Shown here in pieces: positions 2,533-15,897 of a stretch of 22,968 bases of DNA. Positions within the stretch are counted from its first letter, which is position 1, and each line of letters begins with the position of its first letter. The stretch lies in UHGV virus genome UHGV-0310418; one strand, given 5' to 3'. The position numbers and the translations under genes are program-made. The notes under the pieces are model-generated. The model did no database searches. It worked only from the letters and a program-made list of their open reading frames with translations, and was not told the DNA's origin. This DNA comes from a virus.

Positions 2533-3561
2533 TTATTTCACCTGTACCACCACAAACTCATCCGGGTCCGGCAACACCATCAGCGGCGCGGACTGCGTCA
2601 TGGTAAATTCACGGGCGGGATCCCCTACCGTCAGCCAGTGTTTCGGATAACGGGAAGAGGCCACCACACCTTCGGACAACGCCTGAGCATCCTGAATGGC
2701 ACCGTAACAACGGATCCCATCTGCAGCAGTATTCCCCAGAACCAGCATGCCATCTGGAAGATAACGTTTTTCGATACCGTCTTCTGCTATATAAGACGTT
2801 TTCGCCACCACAATGGCCAGATCGCCGTAATACCCCTTGAAGGACACCACTGCGCCCAGATCTTTCACTGCCGTTTCGAGTTGAGAATTTGAACCGCGAC
2901 GGGTATCCAGTTTTTCGCGGAACAGCTTAAAACCATTCAGAAGACGCCAGACGGTACCGTCCATAATGGCAATATTCACAAGACCGCTGGCCTGGTCGCA
3001 GTAGAGGTCAATATCATGTGTAGGATCGAACGTGTCACGATCCTGTTTTGACCACTCCTTACCACTACCCTGAGTGATGTTATTCTTCGTCGACCTGCCA
3101 AAATCGACCTCAATTTTCTCGAACTGGTCTCCTTCCATGGTGTATTTGCCATACAACACAGCATTTACCGCCTGCATTTCTTCCACCTGGACAATCGCGT
3201 GCTCTTCCTGTTTGAGGTTATCGGTAATGATACGCAGACGGCGGTAAGCCGGATCGTTCAGTTGAGATGGATCTTCACCAGGAAGGCGCTCAACCGCCTG
3301 CTGGTAATTAAATTCGTGTTTCGGCTTGACGTAGCCCGGACGCAACACGCGGGTTTCACCACCACGATGACGCAGCACTTTTCCTTCAACAACCGGGGAG
3401 ACATAGGCCGCCACCGGCGTTTTTCCGGTAATTTTGTCCAGCATCACCTCTTCGGTATGGAAATTCACCGTACGGCGGAAAAACAGCTCCAGAAACAGCG
3501 CACGAAATTTAACTTTTTGTTCGGTATAACCGAGTAACTGGCGGGTCGTAAACAATCCCAT
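2533..3561 (-). CDS. E: Major capsid protein E (HK97-fold, lambda gpE-like)
   Basis: 342 aa; long collinear similarity to lambda gpE (e.g. PGYVKPKHE, DPAYRR.RII, EEMQAV.AVL.GKYTM, KLDTRRGSNS.LETAVKDLG, TGDPAREFTM.QSAPLM). Confidence 0.93.
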   Translation of the reverse strand: MGLFTTRQLLGYTEQKVKFRALFLELFFRRTVNFHTEEVMLDKITGKTPVAAYVSPVVEGKVLRHRGGETRVLRPGYVKPKHEFNYQQAVERLPGEDPSQLNDPAYRRLRIITDNLKQEEHAIVQVEEMQAVNAVLYGKYTMEGDQFEKIEVDFGRSTKNNITQGSGKEWSKQDRDTFDPTHDIDLYCDQASGLVNIAIMDGTVWRLLNGFKLFREKLDTRRGSNSQLETAVKDLGAVVSFKGYYGDLAIVVAKTSYIAEDGIEKRYLPDGMLVLGNTAADGIRCYGAIQDAQALSEGVVASSRYPKHWLTVGDPAREFTMTQSAPLMVLPDPDEFVVVQVK

Positions 3562-3590
3562 AAATCAGTTCCTTTCATTCAGAAATCAGT

Positions 3591-3610
3591 CAGGCCACCG
3601 CGGTGGCCTG
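3591..3610. repeat. Perfect 20-bp palindrome CAGGCCACCGCGGTGGCCTG in the D-E intergenic region
   Basis: Read directly from the sequence; begins 8 nt downstream of the D stop and lies about 30 nt upstream of the E start. Confidence 0.8.
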
Positions 3611-3618
3611 ATAACGTG

Positions 3619-3966
3619 TTACGGCAGCGCCGCGTGACTCAGGGCACTGCCGGCAAAGGCGTTGGCCTTTTTGTGTTCATCCACACTTTCAGGCCAGTGG
3701 ATTGCCTCCGTCGCAAAGGTTCCCGACTTGTAATACGTCAGCGCCGTCTCTGTACCTTTAAGCGGCAGTACCAGTATGCCAACCGCACTACCGGCTTTCT
3801 GTCCGTCCCAGACCACCAGTTTCCCGGTGGCTTCATCCAGCATCAGGGGCGTCAGTGCCGGTGTTGGCGAGGAAATCCCGCTGCTGCCTGTGGCGGTATG
3901 AGCCGGATCATTACCGGCAAAAATACGTACTTCCGCACGCTGTTCAGTGATGGTTTTCGTCACCAT
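3619..3966 (-). CDS. D: Head decoration protein D
   Basis: 115 aa; similar to lambda gpD (DPAHTAT, TPLMLD, KLV.WDG, GIL, YKSGTF, AFAG). Confidence 0.9.
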   Translation of the reverse strand: MVTKTITEQRAEVRIFAGNDPAHTATGSSGISSPTPALTPLMLDEATGKLVVWDGQKAGSAVGILVLPLKGTETALTYYKSGTFATEAIHWPESVDEHKKANAFAGSALSHAALP

Positions 3967-4002
3967 ATTGTAAAAACCTCCTATTGATGGTCAGCACTGA
4001 CT

Positions 4003-5508
4003 TCATGGCATGGCCATGAGCATTTTCACGTCCGCATCACCGTCTGCTGACGTCTGTGGCACGCCACCCTGTACCGCTGCCGGTGAATGGTTCGCCATGA
4101 AATGTTCAAACATGGCGGTTGTGGATGCAGAGACCGGTTCTGCCTTACCTGATCCCGCAGCCAGCACAGCCCGGGCGCTCTCCACTGTCATTCCCGGGCA
4201 GGCAGCCAGCTGTTCAGCCTGCGCCTCAGCCCCTTTTGCCTCATCCAGTGCCATGATCTGATCACGGAGTGATGGTCCGGCATCCGCCTGCGGTGAAGCA
4301 GCCAGGATCGGGCGGGCTTTTTCCACCGTCATCTCCGGCATCGCCGCCAGCGTTGCCGCCAGTTGTTCACGACCGTTCGCTTCTTCACACGCCATAATGC
4401 GATCGGCTTCACTCTGCGTGGATGCCACCGGCTGCTGCGGTGCCGCCGCGGCCAGAATCGCCCGGGCCTGTTCAACGCTCATGCCCTGTTGTCCTGCCAG
4501 CATCGTGGCAAGCTGTTCACGTCCTTTCGCTTCCTGGCATGTCAGGATCCCCATCACTCGCTGGTTCTCCTGCGCGGCGGCTTCCGTTGCAGTTAATTGC
4601 GGCATAGTGCCTCCTCTGACATTACTGTTCAGCGCCGTGGCCATCACACTGATGGCATCCGACGCATTGATTAATTCATCCGCCAGCCCGGCCTCAATGC
4701 CGGACTGACCTTCAAAAACGGCAGCCTCTGTTCCCGTGACGGCATCAACAGACAGACCGGTATACATCGCCACTTTTTCGGCAAACATCCGGCGCGCCGC
4801 ATCAATCCGCTGCTGCATGTCCTGGCGAACCTCTGCCGGCAACGCTTCAAACTGATTGCCATCCACCTTGTGCGCACCTGAGTAAATCAGCGTGATATCC
4901 ACACCGGCCTGCGCCAGATGACCGGCATAGCTGACATGGCTCATCATCACGCCAATGGAGCCGATACGGGATGTCTGGGTAACCAGCCGTCGGGAGCAGG
5001 CCGACGCCAGCAGCATGGCTGCAGAACAGGCCGTGTCATTGCACAGTGCCCAGACCGGCTTCTGCTGACGGAGGCGGTAAATCATGTCAGCGCAGTCAAA
5101 CGCGCCGGCGGCCTGCCCGCCCGGACTGTCAATGTCCAGCAGTACGCCCCGCACCTGGCTATCCGCCATTGCCTGCTGAAGACAGGCGACAATGCCGTCA
5201 TAGCCTGTCATTCCGGAAAATGGCCGCATACCACCCAGCCGGTGCACCAGCGTGCCGGTCACCGGCAGTACAGCAATACCGTTCACCACCCGGTAAACAC
5301 GGGCCGGTCGTTTACCTCCGGCCATATACTCGTCCGTTTCAGCCAGCATTCCGGGAGCATCAAGCTGTACCTGTTGTTGTGGTACCGAAAGACTTGCTGC
5401 CCCCATCTCGCGCCCGAGCGCGCAAAAGAAAACCCGCGCATAGGCGGGCTCCAGAAGCAGCGGTTCATTGAATGCTGCGGCAATAATGTGTGAAAGATTA
5501 CGTCTCAC
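4003..5508 (-). CDS. C: Prohead protease / scaffold protein C (S49/ClpP-like), with in-frame nested scaffold Nu3 expected in its 3' part
   Basis: N-terminal two-thirds collinear with lambda gpC (NEPLLLEPAYARVFFCAL, SGMTGY.GI, KPVWAL.ND, SRRLVTQT, IGVMM, ITLIYSG.HKVDGN). C-terminal part carries three tandem copies of a roughly 45-50 aa module, making it 501 aa versus about 439 in lambda. Confidence 0.9.
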   Translation of the reverse strand: MRRNLSHIIAAAFNEPLLLEPAYARVFFCALGREMGAASLSVPQQQVQLDAPGMLAETDEYMAGGKRPARVYRVVNGIAVLPVTGTLVHRLGGMRPFSGMTGYDGIVACLQQAMADSQVRGVLLDIDSPGGQAAGAFDCADMIYRLRQQKPVWALCNDTACSAAMLLASACSRRLVTQTSRIGSIGVMMSHVSYAGHLAQAGVDITLIYSGAHKVDGNQFEALPAEVRQDMQQRIDAARRMFAEKVAMYTGLSVDAVTGTEAAVFEGQSGIEAGLADELINASDAISVMATALNSNVRGGTMPQLTATEAAAQENQRVMGILTCQEAKGREQLATMLAGQQGMSVEQARAILAAAAPQQPVASTQSEADRIMACEEANGREQLAATLAAMPEMTVEKARPILAASPQADAGPSLRDQIMALDEAKGAEAQAEQLAACPGMTVESARAVLAAGSGKAEPVSASTTAMFEHFMANHSPAAVQGGVPQTSADGDADVKMLMAMP

Positions 5509-7293: not shown

Positions 7294-9205
7294 TCACTCC
7301 TCCGGACAGCTTCGCTGCCAGTTCTTTAAGGGTTGGCCGGGTCGTCTCTTCTTCCCGGGATTTTGCCAGTACAGCCAGATCAAGCTGCCAGCGTTGCACG
7401 GACACACGTAATGCCGCGTAGGCATACACCAGGCAGTCCAGCGCTTCGTTACGCCGCTTTTTGTTATCCCACAGCAGACGCATCTTTCCTTTTTCCCACT
7501 TCTCCACAAGCTCTTCCGCGACCAGTTGCTGCGCCTCTGTCTGCGAAAAAATCTCCGGATCATCAGGAAAACGGATGGCATACGACGTGGATTCATCCGC
7601 AGGCGTGGGCTCGGCTTTCATACGGGCATAGAGAATTTCTTTTGCGGTGTCTGTCCCCACTTCACACAGATACACGCCCCGCTGATTGCGGGTTTTTGGC
7701 ATGGTGATCACCGGCTTGCCATAGACAGATGCGCCTTTTACCGGCAGCACCCGGAAAACACCGTGTTTTTTTGACCTCTGATAAACGATTTCGCCATCGA
7801 TACCCCCGATGTCCCAGCAGACACGGGAAATGGTCATTTCGGTTCCGTCTGCATGGCGGTATTTTTTGTTGATCGCCGCATCCACACGTAACAGCGTCTC
7901 TTCCTCATCGGGACGTCCCATAATGATGATTTTATCCACCAGAAAGGCTTCCTCTCCCGGAGCCCATCCCCAGACATACATCTCAAAACGGTTTCGCTGC
8001 GAGTCAATGCCCGCCGTCAGATAAACCACCCGGGCTGGCACCGCCGCCGTGTAATGCACGACCTTATCAATCAGTACCTGGTGATCGAGTTTTTCGCCCA
8101 CGGCCTCTTCGTAGGTCTCGCCCAGCGTGGTGTTCACAAAGGTTTTCAGGCCGTTGGGATCTTTCAGTGCATCCAGCCAGTCATAGACTATCTGTACCCA
8201 GGTGGTGAACGGACTGTACGCCGTCCAGATATGGAAAGTGATGGAGCGCGGCGGCGGAATTTCATCACCCCGGGCGCTGAAAAACATCAGGCCGTCACGG
8301 GTCCACATGCCCGTGTTTTCACAGATCCACCGCCCGTTGCTCTGGTCAAGCTCAGACTGATGGATCACGCAGCCATGATGTTCACAGAGGTAGAAAACGC
8401 TTTCGGGGCTGTCCTTCTCCCATTTAAGGCCAAAAGGCGTGGATTCATCGCCAAATTTCAGATACTGCGCCTCCCCACAGTGCGGGCAGGGCACATAAAA
8501 ACGCATGAAATGTGCCGACTCGTTAGCGGCTTTTTCGATCTGGCAGGAGCCTTTGATTTTAGGCGTCGAGCCGCGAATGGATTTTGGCCATACAGAGCCC
8601 TCAATACGTTTATCCCCCAGCAGGGTTGGCGAACCCTCTTTTTCAACATCCGGTTCGAACGAGGAAAGTTCGTCATAGCAGACCACATCCACGGATTTTT
8701 CACGGTAGTTTTTGGCGGCAGCGCCGCCCAGGCACCAGAAACCGACGCCCGATGAAAAGCGTTTCAGCGTGAGGGTATTATCACGATGTTTACGACCCAG
8801 CCATGGGGAAAGGTCTTTCAGGCATGGCACGTCCCTAATCGTCGTCTCCACGTGAGACTTCATAAAATCTTCAGCGGCAGAATCCGTGGGCTGAAAAAGC
8901 AGACTGTTTCGGGATTTATGCTCAATAAAATACCCGACCACCCCCAGCAACATCTTTGTATAGCCAACACGGGCAGATTTAATCAGATTAACAGTGCGGA
9001 CCTGATCATTCCCCATACTGTTCATGATGGCGATCTGGAACGGCAGCGTTTTCCATTCGCCGTCACCGTATGAGGATTCTTTCGGCAGATAATAATACTG
9101 GTCAGCCCATTCAACTGCCGTCATCGGTACAACCCTGACCAGAGGCTGCAGCGCAACCGAAACGGCAGCCATCAGATTATTCAGTTGTTGCTCTGATATA
9201 TTCAT
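7277..9205 (-). CDS. A: Terminase large subunit A
   Basis: Strong collinear similarity to lambda gpA (TAVEWAD..YYLPKES, KSARVGY.KMLLGV, GSVWPKSIRGSTPK, WTAYSPFTTWVQIV, TAGIDSQ, RNEALDC). Track ORF starts at an upstream TTG; start placed at internal ATG (MNISEQQL), which overlaps the Nu1 3' end as in lambda. Confidence 0.93.
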   Translation of the reverse strand: MNISEQQLNNLMAAVSVALQPLVRVVPMTAVEWADQYYYLPKESSYGDGEWKTLPFQIAIMNSMGNDQVRTVNLIKSARVGYTKMLLGVVGYFIEHKSRNSLLFQPTDSAAEDFMKSHVETTIRDVPCLKDLSPWLGRKHRDNTLTLKRFSSGVGFWCLGGAAAKNYREKSVDVVCYDELSSFEPDVEKEGSPTLLGDKRIEGSVWPKSIRGSTPKIKGSCQIEKAANESAHFMRFYVPCPHCGEAQYLKFGDESTPFGLKWEKDSPESVFYLCEHHGCVIHQSELDQSNGRWICENTGMWTRDGLMFFSARGDEIPPPRSITFHIWTAYSPFTTWVQIVYDWLDALKDPNGLKTFVNTTLGETYEEAVGEKLDHQVLIDKVVHYTAAVPARVVYLTAGIDSQRNRFEMYVWGWAPGEEAFLVDKIIIMGRPDEEETLLRVDAAINKKYRHADGTEMTISRVCWDIGGIDGEIVYQRSKKHGVFRVLPVKGASVYGKPVITMPKTRNQRGVYLCEVGTDTAKEILYARMKAEPTPADESTSYAIRFPDDPEIFSQTEAQQLVAEELVEKWEKGKMRLLWDNKKRRNEALDCLVYAYAALRVSVQRWQLDLAVLAKSREEETTRPTLKELAAKLSGGVNGYSR

Positions 9206-11698: not shown

Positions 11699-11905
11699 CT
11701 TCATTTTCACTTTCTTAAATCTAACGACAGACGGCTAACATTTAAGTATTGTGAAATATTATCAAATGTAATCATCATTGATTTACAAAAGATACATTTT
11801 GCCCCGAAAGGATTCCTGTCAGAAACATCAAAAGATGATGTTCTATACTGAGAACCATGGCAACACGGGCATCTAAAGTGAATATGGTTTGTAATATTTT
11901 CTACC

Positions 11906-12121
11906 TCAAAGTGCCACTACATGAACAGCCGCGGGGCCTTTAGGTCCGTTCTCAATACCAAATTCGACTTGCTGATTCTCAGTTAACGTTTTGAAATCGT
12001 TGCTCTGAATAGCTGAGAAATGGACAAACACATCTTTGCTACCATCTTTCGGCGTGATGAAACCAAAACCTTTTTCAGGGTTAAACCATTTCACTAAACC
12101 AGTCATTTTGTTAGACATCAT
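11906..12121 (-). CDS. cspI: Cold shock protein, CspA family (CspI-like)
   Basis: [35 protein letters not shown] contains both RNP motifs (KGFGFI, VFVHF). Near-identical to E. coli Qin CspI as recalled. Start may be the second ATG (12118). Confidence 0.85.
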
Positions 12122-12486
12122 TATTACCTTTTGAAGAAGTTAGCCCTTGGGCAGAATGGTCCGAAAAAAATATCAGAGAGAAAAACCAACAAGGAAATCT
12201 CAAGAGGTACAAATAATAAAATTATAACAATGACTGCTTCAGATAATTTTGTAACAAACCAGAACACCATTAACGCATGATTAACCAACCATAGCAAGGA
12301 TTACTTTTGTAAAGAAAAACACACGAATGAAACAATAGCTTTATTTATTAATAAAACGTGTCATTCTGTCTAATGACCTTTTATCTTACCCTTAAGATTT
12401 CAAGGATTTTGACTCATGGAAGAGTCCTTTTTATTTAAATTTCACATTCAGCACTAAAAATAATCCGATTTAATGTTAATCTACAT

Positions 12487-13508
<1,022 letters not shown>

Positions 13509-13613
13509 GGATATTTATCAGGATTTATCGGTTTCTGAACCCTGGATATGTTTATCTGTCCCGGCCTGTTGAATCAGGCGGGGAAAAGGTAAAGACAATC
13601 AAGAGGATTATTT

Positions 13614-13886
13614 ATGGACAATAACACCATTTCTCTACAGGAGTTGCTCGACTGCATTTCAAAGCTTCGGGATGATGTAAATGCCCTCACTGTTGCATTT
13701 TCATATTTGGCCTTATCAATTCCCAGAGAACAAATGCAACCAACACTGGCATCGCTCCTGCTTGAATCACGCAACCCCAAATGGTCCCAGGAACAACAAA
13801 ATTCTTTCAAGTGGCTGGCGGCATTACTGGAAGAAAAATATGCTGGTAAAATTACCATTTCGGTGGAGTCTTCAGAGAATCAGTAA
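13614..13886 (+). CDS. Hypothetical protein (90 aa) on the opposite strand inside the lysis cassette
   Basis: ATG with AAGAGGA Shine-Dalgarno 6 nt upstream; protein-like composition; the overlapping minus-strand ORF 13574..13858 is Cys/Ser-rich and looks spurious. 3' end overlaps the YdfR-like gene convergently by about 35 nt. Confidence 0.55.
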   Translation: MDNNTISLQELLDCISKLRDDVNALTVAFSYLALSIPREQMQPTLASLLLESRNPKWSQEQQNSFKWLAALLEEKYAGKITISVESSENQ

Positions 13887-14196
13887 TTCTTCCTGGTGGC
13901 TTTCCTTTGTAGGTTATCCACACATTCTGCGCCTCTAAAATTATGGGGCGCTTTTCCGGCGACTGCTCATCCCCTACACATAACCCGGCAGCAACATCCA
14001 GGAATACCTGTCTGATTCTCATTCTGGCTGCTGCCTCATAAAACTCCAGCGCGGCACCTTCAACACGGTCCAGCGAGATGTCCAGGTCAAAAATTTCACC
14101 GTCAAAGCGTTTTTTGTCCCGTAAGGCTACAGTTACCGCCACTTTATTCTCAAAATTGCGGACTCCTTTCACAACCAGTTCATAGTCTTGTGTCAT
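13852..14196 (-). CDS. Hypothetical protein between holin and endolysin (YdfR-like position)
   Basis: 114 aa from internal ATG (MTQDYELVVKG...) with GAGAG-type Shine-Dalgarno; track ORF 13852..14217 would otherwise overlap the holin 3' end. Family assignment is positional. Confidence 0.55.
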   Translation of the reverse strand: MTQDYELVVKGVRNFENKVAVTVALRDKKRFDGEIFDLDISLDRVEGAALEFYEAAARMRIRQVFLDVAAGLCVGDEQSPEKRPIILEAQNVWITYKGKPPGRITDSLKTPPKW

Positions 14197-14200
14197 TGGA

Positions 14201-14416
14201 TTACTCTCTTCTCGCAACCTTACGCCTGTCTTCTTTAATCTTGAAATAAAGGTTTGTCAGATACGTCAGCAGGCCAAAAACCAGACTACCCAGCACACCG
14301 ATTGCAGCCCACTGTGACGGAGTTACTTTATCGAGTAACTGCAATGCCCAGAAACCAGCATTACCAGCCGATGTGCCATAGGCGATACCTGTTGTTAACT
14401 TATCCATTGATTTCAT
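14201..14416 (-). CDS. S: Class II holin / pinholin (phage 21 S-like) with dual-start motif
   Basis: 71 aa [26 protein letters not shown]...[32 protein letters not shown], very close to P21 S as recalled. M1-K-S-M4 gives the antiholin/holin dual start. Confidence 0.9.
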
Positions 14417-14634
14417 ATCCTCACCCCGATGTACACAGATGGTGCAATATGTTTGAAAAGATCGGAGTCTATGGGGTAGTTTTTATAGCAAACGTTGTTC
14501 TCAACGGCGCTAAAAAACAGACACATTAAAAATGTGGGTAATTATTTTAAAAGAAAATCATATATTAAATAATAATACGAGATATGTTTTCATATTTAGT
14601 GTACTGTATACGGCCATTTATACAGGAAAAGCCT

Positions 14635-14805
14635 ATGTCAGAACGTAAAGACTCAAAATCACGCCGTAATTATCTCGTTAAATGTTCCTGCCCAAACTGC
14701 ACCCAAGAGTCAGAACACAGTTTTTCAAGAGTACAAAAAGGTGCCCTTTTGATCTGCCCTCATTGCAACAAAGTATTCCAGACAAATCTTAAAGCTGTAG
14801 CTTGA
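14635..14805 (+). CDS. Small Cys4 zinc-ribbon protein, putative
   Basis: 56 aa from internal ATG with AGGAAAA Shine-Dalgarno; CxxC...19 aa...CxxC (CPNC, CPHC). Followed 60 nt downstream by a strong terminator. Track ORF 14584..14805 starts upstream. Confidence 0.55.
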   Translation: MSERKDSKSRRNYLVKCSCPNCTQESEHSFSRVQKGALLICPHCNKVFQTNLKAVA

Positions 14806-14887: not shown

Positions 14888-15168
14888 AATATTGTGGTAC
14901 TTTTTGTGGGAGTCATCCACTTACGCACTTTGTTTTGCTATGCCAGCAGTTAGCTTCTGCTGTAAAACTATTCATGCAGCAAACCTGCACTTCACCACAA
15001 TGGTTAGCATACTTTTCCTGATTAAGTTATTGCCAAATATGCTGGCCATTGTTTCATGTATTGGACCTCCTTACTATTTATTAAAGAGATCCAATATTCA
15101 CCACTCTGTCTGTATCTCCACTCAGGCATCAGCCTTCTTCGTTATCGTATACAGACAAACTATGAATT

Positions 15169-15384
15169 TTAATCAGTAATTATGACATTTGCTGCTGCAG
15201 GACCTTTAGCACCACTCTCTACAGAGAAGGTAACCTTTTGACCTTCAAATAAGGTTCGATAATTATCATTCTGAATCGCAGAAAAATGCACAAACACATC
15301 TTTACTACCATCAACAGGAGAAATAAAGCCAAAACCTTTATCAGCGTTAAACCATTTTACTAAACCAGTCATTTTATTTGACAT
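15169..15384 (-). CDS. cspB: Cold shock protein, CspA family (CspB-like)
   Basis: [66 protein letters not shown] with both RNP motifs; near-identical to E. coli CspB as recalled; AAGGAA Shine-Dalgarno. Confidence 0.85.
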
Positions 15385-15684
15385 TCTACATTCCTTAACT
15401 TGAGCCTTTCGGCATAAATGGCTTGTATAACAGAAACGACTTCGTACTTAATTGGAGAGACTCAAAGAAGGAATAAGTGAATAACACCTGAAATGAGAAC
15501 TGCTTTAGTAAACTACTTCGTATATCGTCTGTTCTTCAAACCGACGCAATCATTAACGCATAGTTGAACATATGAAGCAATGTTTATTTTAGACATCCAG
15601 CCATCTTCAACCCCATCAAAAAACTATAGCTTTCTTCAGGAACGTGTGTATAGTGCGCCAAGTTATCAGTATTAAGGAATTTTT

Positions 15685-15897
15685 TTGTCCCGTAAAATGA
15701 CAGGAATTCTCAAAACCTTTGACGGCAAAAGCGGCAAAGGTCTTATAACCCCATCCGATGGTCGTATCGATGTCCAGCTTCATGTTTCAGCGCTCAATCT
15801 CCGCGATGCAGAAGAAATTACCACCGGATTACGCGTGGAATTTTGCCGGATAAATGGTCTGCGTGGACCATCAGCTGCCAATGTTTACCTTTCATGA
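15685..15897 (+). CDS. cspF: Cold-shock-domain protein lacking canonical RNP motifs (CspF/CspH-like)
   Basis: [37 protein letters not shown]...[13 protein letters not shown], matching E. coli CspF as recalled. Apparent TTG start 6 nt after AAGGAA; an in-frame ATG lies 12 nt downstream. Confidence 0.8.

Follow-up and report, generated by a model that had tools for sequence, protein, structure and literature searches.

Why is a small gene that reads against late transcription found between the holin gene (S) and the endolysin gene (R) of a prophage? The question is raised by the virus genome UHGV-0310418, a stretch of 22,968 nucleotides (nt) that was analysed as a whole and is referred to below as the window. 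It comes from an Escherichia coli prophage whose late genes are on the minus strand. Its S and R genes are separated by two small open reading frames (ORFs), one of 114 amino acids (aa) on the minus strand and one of 90 aa on the plus strand, which converge and overlap at their 3′ ends. A preliminary description of this DNA took both of them for extra genes in a lysis cassette of the phage 21 type. We find instead that the minus-strand gene is ydfR, a regular occupant of such cassettes, and that the plus-strand ORF is, on sequence evidence, a real gene, whose family is also found outside phages. This gene is probably a moron expressed in the lysogen, and not a component of the lysis machinery.

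The interval between S and R comprises the following main features, where PGAP stands for the Prokaryotic Genome Annotation Pipeline:

13614..13886, plus strand: 90-aa opposite-strand gene (WP_001315200.1, PHROG 2411), from PGAP annotation, a profile match and frame conservation
13852..14196, minus strand: ydfR (DUF1327), 114 aa, with the conserved N-terminal domain and a C-terminus of the 114/116-aa type (PF07041)
13852..13886, no strand assigned: convergent overlap, made of the last 10-11 residues of the plus-strand protein and the YdfR end 'TDSLKTPPKW', from the ORF coordinates
13553..13859, no strand assigned: variable segment (cassette) with the plus-strand gene, from pairwise blastn break-points, junction sequences and the alignment with K-12

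The geometry given in the preliminary description proved to be accurate. The stop of the S gene (labelled essQ in an identical RefSeq locus) at 14201 and the start of R (rrrQ) at 13508 leave 13509-14200 between them, that is 692 bp where about 690 bp had been stated. The minus-strand ORF has, from its ATG, the 114 aa reported for it; with an alternative TTG start at 14217 it would be 121 aa long. The plus-strand ORF has its 90 aa and, 6 nt 5′ of its ATG, the Shine-Dalgarno sequence AAGAGGA at 13601-13607 (+), and the convergent overlap at 13852-13886 measures 35 nt. The plus-strand gene, located between ydfR and R, is indeed antisense to the late operon.

A gene on the plus strand

PGAP annotates the plus-strand ORF as the hypothetical protein WP_001315200.1, which matches PHROG 2411, a family of unknown function, over residues 1-90 of 90 (E=4.9e-57); in one UniRef entry the protein carries the name 'Ybl58'. 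The earlier statement that neither product of the interval matches a family thus has to be given up, the minus-strand protein being a member of DUF1327 and the plus-strand protein one of PHROG 2411. DNA of the gene is present in ~1053 of the 5426 complete E. coli genomes (~19%), at 86-100% identity, and the exact 90-aa sequence is found on at least 1000 contigs. Among 79 related loci from IMG/VR or phages, which represent 40 haplotypes, the ORF keeps a length of 89-90 aa in 77 and is disrupted in two, and the GAGG core of its Shine-Dalgarno sequence is invariant in all 79. In the six genera or contexts compared the plus frame is always open, and no antisense frame is consistently so. Loss of the reading frame in related prophages had been named beforehand as a result that would speak against the gene. 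Since the frame is conserved, with homologues down to ~30% identity open in every genus examined, this objection falls.

A 94-aa ORF on the minus strand, at 13574-13858, almost exactly shadows the plus-strand gene, with the third codon positions of both in register. Could the plus-strand ORF then be a chance reading frame, or the shadow of minus-strand coding, be it this antisense ORF or the C-terminus of a once longer YdfR? YdfR proteins of 169-330 aa do exist in other phages, and the ratio of nonsynonymous to synonymous polymorphism (pN/pS) is lower in the fully overlapping antisense ORF (0.27) than in the plus frame (0.37). Because the third codon positions coincide, however, this ratio alone cannot tell one strand from the other, and the coding strand is decided by ORF integrity and by deep homologues. 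Several haplotypes with an intact plus ORF have interruptions in the antisense ORF, which is also truncated in a plasmid paralogue, and across genera only the plus frame is always open. The window segment shows no sequence relationship to the long C-termini that YdfR has in other phages, the Shine-Dalgarno core is invariant, and the family has a coherent conserved core with a confident helical model. We regard the absence of a gene as very improbable, this explanation being effectively refuted already by the frame integrity, paralogue and family data.

An inserted cassette and the origin of the overlap

The gene is present or absent among otherwise collinear relatives, with break-points at ~13553/13565 and 13856/13859. 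Phage 733R4 has 19 bp in place of window positions ~13565-13856, and R follows its ydfR 63 nt later. Compared with PhiR63_1 and with phage 86 of the Shiga toxin 2 type (Stx2-86), the variable segment is 13553-13859, and other cassettes are found there. The cassette with the plus-strand gene is absent from K-12 Qin, 733R4 and mEp460, and isolated phages exist that have the same lysis cassette without this gene. Its content of guanine plus cytosine (GC) is 43%, a small difference from ydfR (48%), rrrQ (51%) and essQ (45%). The preliminary count of two extra genes holds for this ~0.3-kb plus-strand cassette, which is inserted with respect to close relatives, and not for ydfR, which is the standard occupant of the place in K-12 Qin and in Shiga toxin (Stx) phages. 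On the side of R, the cassette is bordered by the least variable part of the S-R interval among related loci:

13509..13552, minus strand: region upstream of R that contains the rrrQ translation initiation region and is shared by every slot variant (homology with K-12, PhiR63_1, 733R4 and Stx2-86 resumes here)

The other border bears on the origin of the overlap. Nucleotide homology between the plus-strand gene and its plasmid paralogue extends from 13601 to 13853 and stops there. At the protein level, conservation of the core ceases at about aa 77-80, and the ten terminal residues are unconserved across the family. Only the last codon and the stop of ydfR are taken from the insert. Judged from these sequences, the last ten or so codons of the plus-strand ORF appear to be the antisense of the ydfR 3′ end, read until a stop codon is met, and would lie outside the transferable gene. 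Since family homology stops at 13853 and the tail is unconserved and disordered in the protein model, the overlap is best read as a by-product of the junction. The preliminary idea that it might be a device for mutual interference is not supported, as stated, by the same data, the overlapping codons being an unconserved tail supplied by the flank, nor by the homologues, which stand alone without ydfR or lysis genes nearby.

Family and distribution

An exhaustive HMMER search of 1.84 billion representative sequences yielded 20 clusters, which together with a profile search define a coherent Enterobacterales family of 81-106-aa proteins, reaching down to ~30% identity. Its members share the core ELL..I..L...VN.L..AFSYLAFS...E......L.FES.N.....Q..F..LA..LE and are variable in the tail. 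An AlphaFold2 model based on a 53-sequence alignment predicts helices at aa 8-34, 38-52 and 59-77, with a mean predicted local distance difference test (pLDDT) score of 81, and a disordered tail at residues 80-90, where pLDDT falls below 50. The 90-aa protein is acidic, with an isoelectric point of 4.6, and soluble. Pfam and NCBIfam scans gave no match for it, and neither this protein nor YdfR and the other ORFs of the slot described below matched the PADLOC defence models at E<=1. The profile of the family retrieved nothing below E=0.1 from the PDB sequences, fold searches returned no significant match, and literature searches that covered its accessions, the name 'Ybl58', DUF1327 and opposite-strand genes of lysis cassettes found nothing on the gene. 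With no Pfam or NCBIfam model covering it, the family deserves an entry of its own.

Homologues are found in several settings outside E. coli prophages. In Serratia marcescens, S. rubidaea and Chimaeribacter, a stand-alone chromosomal homologue (X) occurs in the order rne-ABM-pyrC-dinI-X-bssS-solA, ~2 kb from rne (loci L091 5001-5282; L104/L105 3001-3279; L106/L107 3001-3270). In E. coli K-12, dinI adjoins bssS, and no gene is known to lie between them. Despite the dinI neighbourhood in Serratia, no LexA box (CTG-N10-CAG) was found upstream of the gene in six contexts. The homologues of Sodalis and of metagenome contigs are monocistronic and lie in unrelated neighbourhoods, and elsewhere too homologues are monocistronic and surrounded by wide intergenic spaces. 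A 56%-identical paralogue, WP_000976359.1, is carried by 75 E. coli plasmids, of which 70 are conjugative (for instance, L090 6001-6270 and L082 4014-4283). In the two plasmids examined, it lies directly downstream of an autotransporter adhesin gene, with no phage genes nearby; in L090, this adhesin gene is accompanied by an autotransporter O-heptosyltransferase gene, forming an AIDA/TibA-like pair.

Two phage contexts complete the distribution. A Citrobacter freundii prophage carries a 60%-identical copy on the other side of the holin gene, again opposite to the late genes and again overlapping a convergent small gene. The latter (L092 5239-5430, minus strand) encodes 63 aa with the C-terminus '...KITGSLRAPIKL', similar to '...RITGSLKTPP' of the 114/116-aa YdfR, but has no relation to DUF1327 at the N-terminus of its product. 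It seems that the junction sequence accompanies the opposite-strand gene. Phage phiSTEC1575-Stx2k has the block formed by S, ydfR and the plus-strand gene, followed by a different lysis set, with a holin and an M15 peptidase. Because its homologues stand alone on chromosomes and plasmids and are also found with different lysis sets, the plus-strand gene is not tied to S, R or YdfR.

A recurrent slot between ydfR and R

The place in which the cassette is inserted is a slot used by other genes as well. We surveyed 243 intervals from ydfR to R in IMG/VR and phage records; the sample is biased in favour of the three queries from which it was drawn. The spacing downstream of ydfR falls into two size ranges, one of -1 to 63 nt without a further gene and one of 296-511 nt. 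Intervals in the second range contain an ORF of 86-104 aa on the opposite strand, of which there are five mutually unalignable kinds:

PHROG 2411: the gene of the window
PHROG 1853: gp06 of Stx2-86
PHROG 2572, 86 aa: PhiR63_1 and PhiR12_2_star
98-aa ORF: phage Evi
87-aa ORF: L137 type, at 464-727 of the interval, opposite strand
Positions of further examples of these kinds, all on the minus strand of their loci: L087 3000-3260; L101 2258-2518; L089 3317-3631; L103 2044-2340

The exception is Stx1_499, with a gap of 511 nt and no clear gene. An additional same-strand gene was found in no class of the 243 intervals. In three of the five kinds the ORF overlaps the 3′ end of ydfR, by 35, 53 and 68 nt. 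The slot ORFs of Stx2-86, PhiR63_1/PhiR12_2_star, Evi and the L137 type have the same slot, the same orientation and a size similar to that of the window gene, often along with a convergent ydfR overlap and, on the R side, a hairpin. They differ from it in that none shows similarity to the 90-aa protein (BLASTP, hhalign) and each is paired with a different YdfR C-terminus. The 86-aa kind has only shallow homologues in E. coli, and the ORF of PhiR63_1 is unannotated in its GenBank record. In all five kinds, the first predicted helix closes with an 'hh(L/I/V)P' motif; the distant homology that this motif suggested received no support from BLASTP and hhalign, and the motif is probably shared by chance.

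The hairpin of the window has the following position:

13559..13584, no strand assigned: GC-rich hairpin that borders the cassette on the R side, part of the 5′ region of the plus-strand gene and, on the late transcript, located ahead of R (RNA fold)

RNA folding of 13545-13625 (+) gives -25.3 kcal/mol with z = -4.0, and the inner stem is kept in all haplotypes. Analogous hairpins are found at L087 ~3296-3320, L089 ~3683-3712 and L092 ~4905-4930 (four variants examined, the window included). That of Citrobacter (L092) lies at the holin-proximal edge. The hairpins of Stx2-86 and Citrobacter have nearly the same sequence although the adjoining genes differ, and the one of Stx2-86 is followed by a T-run in the plus orientation. 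These hairpins may mark the boundary of a cassette or serve as insulating terminators.

The recurrence of the slot bears on the possibility that plus-strand transcription is itself the main role of the cassette, the protein being secondary. In the lysogen, the plus transcript would run antisense through ydfR and S and be complementary to the ydfR-R junction of a leaky late transcript. It would act as a safety catch that lowers accidental expression of the pinholin and of the signal-arrest-release (SAR) endolysin, or it would tune the timing of lysis after induction. Between ydfR and R, the gene is the exact antisense of the late transcript, five unrelated cassettes share slot and orientation with three overlaps among them, the hairpin at the R-proximal edge is conserved, and no plus-strand terminator was detected across ydfR/essQ up to 14900, all of which would suit such a role. 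However, the protein is conserved to ~30% identity in places where nothing exists to be antisense to, and conservation within the gene is lowest in the overlap segment. Moreover, the same S-ydfR-R cassette without an insert of this sort is found in many viable phages and in most E. coli prophages, no promoter was detected in the scan, and counter-selection of sense promoters ahead of R explains the bias in orientation equally well. As the main role, we consider antisense transcription unlikely; as a secondary effect on S, ydfR or R it is possible, because unrelated opposite-strand ORFs recur in the slot.

A broader proposal, which we find quite doubtful, would see in the slot an orientation-locked docking site, where at least five unrelated small genes would have been captured because transcription against the late operon, besides the proteins themselves, is useful. 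This transcription may restrain, by an antisense or a collision effect, the leaky expression of the pinholin and the SAR endolysin in lysogens, or modulate the timing of lysis. Separately, the same proposal takes the 90-aa family, in view of its dinI-X-bssS position in Serratia, for what could be a new small stress-response 'connector', common to chromosomes, plasmids and prophages.

ydfR and the lysis genes

The minus-strand protein matches PF07041 (DUF1327) with E=6.1e-42 and 142 bits (cut-off 25), over model positions 1-92 of 93, and PHROG 406 across its full length. The gene order S21-type holin-ydfR-lysozyme is the same as essQ-ydfR-rrrQ in K-12 Qin and in many phages. DNA of the ydfR N-terminal domain is present in 4297 of the 5426 complete E. 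coli genomes, at 8277 places, and also in 101 phage records, many of them from Stx phages. As ydfR is usually found between S and R (4297/5426 genomes), the adjacency of these two genes, from which the preliminary description started, is not the norm for E. coli cassettes of the S21 type.

YdfR proteins have their first 72-86 residues in common and very different C-terminal parts, with lengths ranging from 72 to 330 aa. Over aa 1-113, the YdfR of the window shares 90% identity with its 116-aa counterpart in vB_EcoS-733R4, a phage devoid of the plus-strand ORF. The YdfR of K-12 Qin (P76160, DUF1327) has the same position between essQ and rrrQ and is nearly identical to it in the N-terminal ~86 aa, whereas the C-terminal 30 residues are unrelated. 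K-12 has neither the spacer nor the opposite-strand gene, its ydfR being contiguous with essQ and rrrQ and overlapping rrrQ by 4 nt. Functional data on YdfR were found only for the K-12 protein, and they show that residues 1-72 bind the catalytic N-terminal half of RNase E, that YdfR co-purifies with RNA, and that its overexpression alters few transcripts (PMC13232886). The stretch reported to bind RNase E in K-12 (aa 1-72) is conserved in the sequence of the window YdfR. In one IMG/VR relative (L011 ~2924-4232, at window position ~14036), an insertion of ~1.3 kb with a 3-bp duplication and transposase-like ORFs lies inside ydfR and looks like an IS3-family element.

Could the 90-aa protein be a dedicated regulator, inhibitor or cofactor of YdfR, both genes forming a convergent two-gene module? 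The plus-strand gene abuts ydfR of the 114-aa type in all E. coli and Shigella prophage copies seen, the convergent minus-strand neighbour in Citrobacter has the YdfR-like C-terminus '...KITGSLRAP', and the Serratia homologue lies 2 kb from rne, the latter probably by coincidence. Yet YdfR, a 114-116-aa type included, occurs without the plus-strand gene in around three quarters of the genomes that carry ydfR, and the family occurs without any DUF1327 gene on plasmids, in Serratia, in Sodalis and in metagenome contigs. The other occupants of the slot are, in addition, unrelated proteins. A partnership with YdfR is, in our view, improbable.

The remaining genes of the lysis cassette are:

14201..14416, minus strand: essQ-type class II (phage 21 S) pinholin gene, first in the lysis cassette (PF04971 Phage_holin_2_1, E=7e-34)
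12975..13508, minus strand: rrrQ-type lysozyme (endolysin, R) (PF00959, E=8e-25)
12487..12978, minus strand: rzpQ, Rz-like i-spanin, DUF2514 (PF10721, E=2e-38)
12531-12827: Rz1-like ORF embedded in rzpQ, with the lipobox LTSC (ORF list)

In its genes, this cassette conforms to the phage 21 type, with a class II S21-like holin, a SAR-like lysozyme and an Rz/Rz1 pair (PF04971, PF00959, PF10721), and the rzpQ/rzoQ genes of the K-12 annotation are the counterpart of rzpQ and its embedded ORF in the window. The N-terminus of RrrQ has an Ala/Gly-rich hydrophobic stretch that looks like a SAR-type signal, and in Stx phages R21-like SAR endolysins are the rule (PMC8136144). The late operon must read S-ydfR-R-Rz. 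As a whole, the arrangement is real and widespread: it is already present in the RefSeq annotation, is very common, and is no new kind of system.

A probable moron expressed in the lysogen

What, then, is the gene for? We favour, as the probable answer, that it is a moron expressed in the lysogen and not part of the lysis function (for the definition of morons, see PMC2629481). ydfR is an ordinary late-operon member of the Qin/Stx type, taken to be transcribed with the lysis genes, and the ~0.3-kb cassette between ydfR and R brings an opposite-strand gene that would be autonomous and expressed from its own signals in the lysogen. Its product, a small acidic protein of three predicted helices, presumably cytoplasmic, would act on host physiology by binding to proteins. 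The conserved part of the gene would end at about codons 77-80, the remaining ones running into the ydfR antisense until a stop. SAR endolysins are exported by the Sec system and are able to lyse cells once released. The opposite orientation would be explained if a sense promoter at this place drove R and Rz, and was harmful, and a promoter on the wrong strand, which leads into ydfR and S, was harmless; it would then be what selection leaves for a lysogen-active gene located directly upstream of a SAR endolysin.

The reality of the gene, the distribution of its family, the break-points of the insertion, the unconserved tail and the recurrence of the slot, as shown in the preceding sections, are the ground on which this explanation is built. 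Several observations weigh against it. Neither fold nor family matches give the 90-aa protein a functional handle, and the pN/pS values, as said above, do not by themselves separate the plus frame from the antisense one. A consensus scan detected no sigma-70-like promoter in 13509-13613, although such scans miss weak or non-consensus signals, and no plus-strand intrinsic terminator was found after 13886 in a scan up to 14900 across ydfR/essQ; both the expression of the gene and the autonomy of its transcription are what we infer. In E. coli prophages the gene always adjoins ydfR of the 114-aa type, so that a functional link with YdfR is possible, and five cassettes in a single orientation, three of them overlapping ydfR, could reflect selection for antisense transcription itself. 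Two promoter candidates read by hand, TATGTT at 13547-13552 and TTGAAT at 13569-13574, are too weak to be claimed. A toxin-antitoxin pair was also considered and dropped, because the gene stands alone elsewhere and because, among the genes overexpressed in the RNase E study, growth arrest was seen only for yegJ (PMC13232886).

Among known systems, lambdoid morons such as bor and lom of phage lambda are likewise extra genes of a late operon, present or absent in collinear relatives and with homologues outside phages; in deviating base composition, the parallel with the window gene is slight at most. The moron concept is that of Hendrix, Juhala and Casjens, and lambda bor points against late transcription, as the plus-strand gene does. 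Unlike these morons, the window gene is placed within the lysis cassette, flanked by ydfR and the endolysin gene, and not after Rz or among tail genes; the scan of the window revealed no promoter or terminator for it; and its product is a soluble, acidic, helical protein, not one of the envelope. A second comparison concerns the cis-antisense RNAs of phages, such as sar of P22, oop of lambda and anti-Q RNA, which also lie opposite to a phage operon and could base-pair with the mRNA of that operon (two of them, sar and the Q antisense RNA, appear in PMC2629481). These RNAs are short and non-coding, their promoters have been mapped and their targets demonstrated, whereas the element of the window is a conserved protein-coding gene, known from its sequence, and an Rfam scan of the S-R interval found no RNA family.

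Other small passengers of the late region

The late region carries further small passengers, namely cspB, cspF, cspI, gnsB and ynfN, and IraM is present in related phages. Around the lysis cassette, the following were located:

11906-12121, minus strand: csp gene
15169-15384, minus strand: csp gene
15685-15897, plus strand: csp gene
11860-12275 and 15106-15545, both minus strand: two full-length Rfam cspA thermoregulator 5′ untranslated regions (157 and 114 bits)
14584-14805, plus strand: ynfU-like zinc-ribbon small ORF (CPNC...CPHC)

The csp genes amount to three cold-shock passengers in the late region, and the thermoregulators sit ahead of cspI- and cspB-like genes. The zinc-ribbon ORF, just upstream of essQ, is a further opposite-strand passenger.

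Significance

The value of these results is mostly one of clarification. A seemingly odd lysis cassette turns out to be a common layout of E. coli prophages, with ydfR as its normal third gene, known as such and with a function that is only beginning to be studied. Its opposite-strand ORF belongs to a genuine, unnamed and uncharacterised family of small proteins, which is also found on plasmids and is syntenic in the examined Serratia species and Chimaeribacter. From the survey, a hot spot also emerges in the few hundred bases that precede the SAR endolysin gene. Small genes on the opposite strand occupy it repeatedly, and its locked orientation is a mildly interesting regularity. Should this orientation indeed reflect a control over lethal lysis genes in lysogens, consequences would follow for the stability of prophages and for their spontaneous induction, including those of Stx phages.

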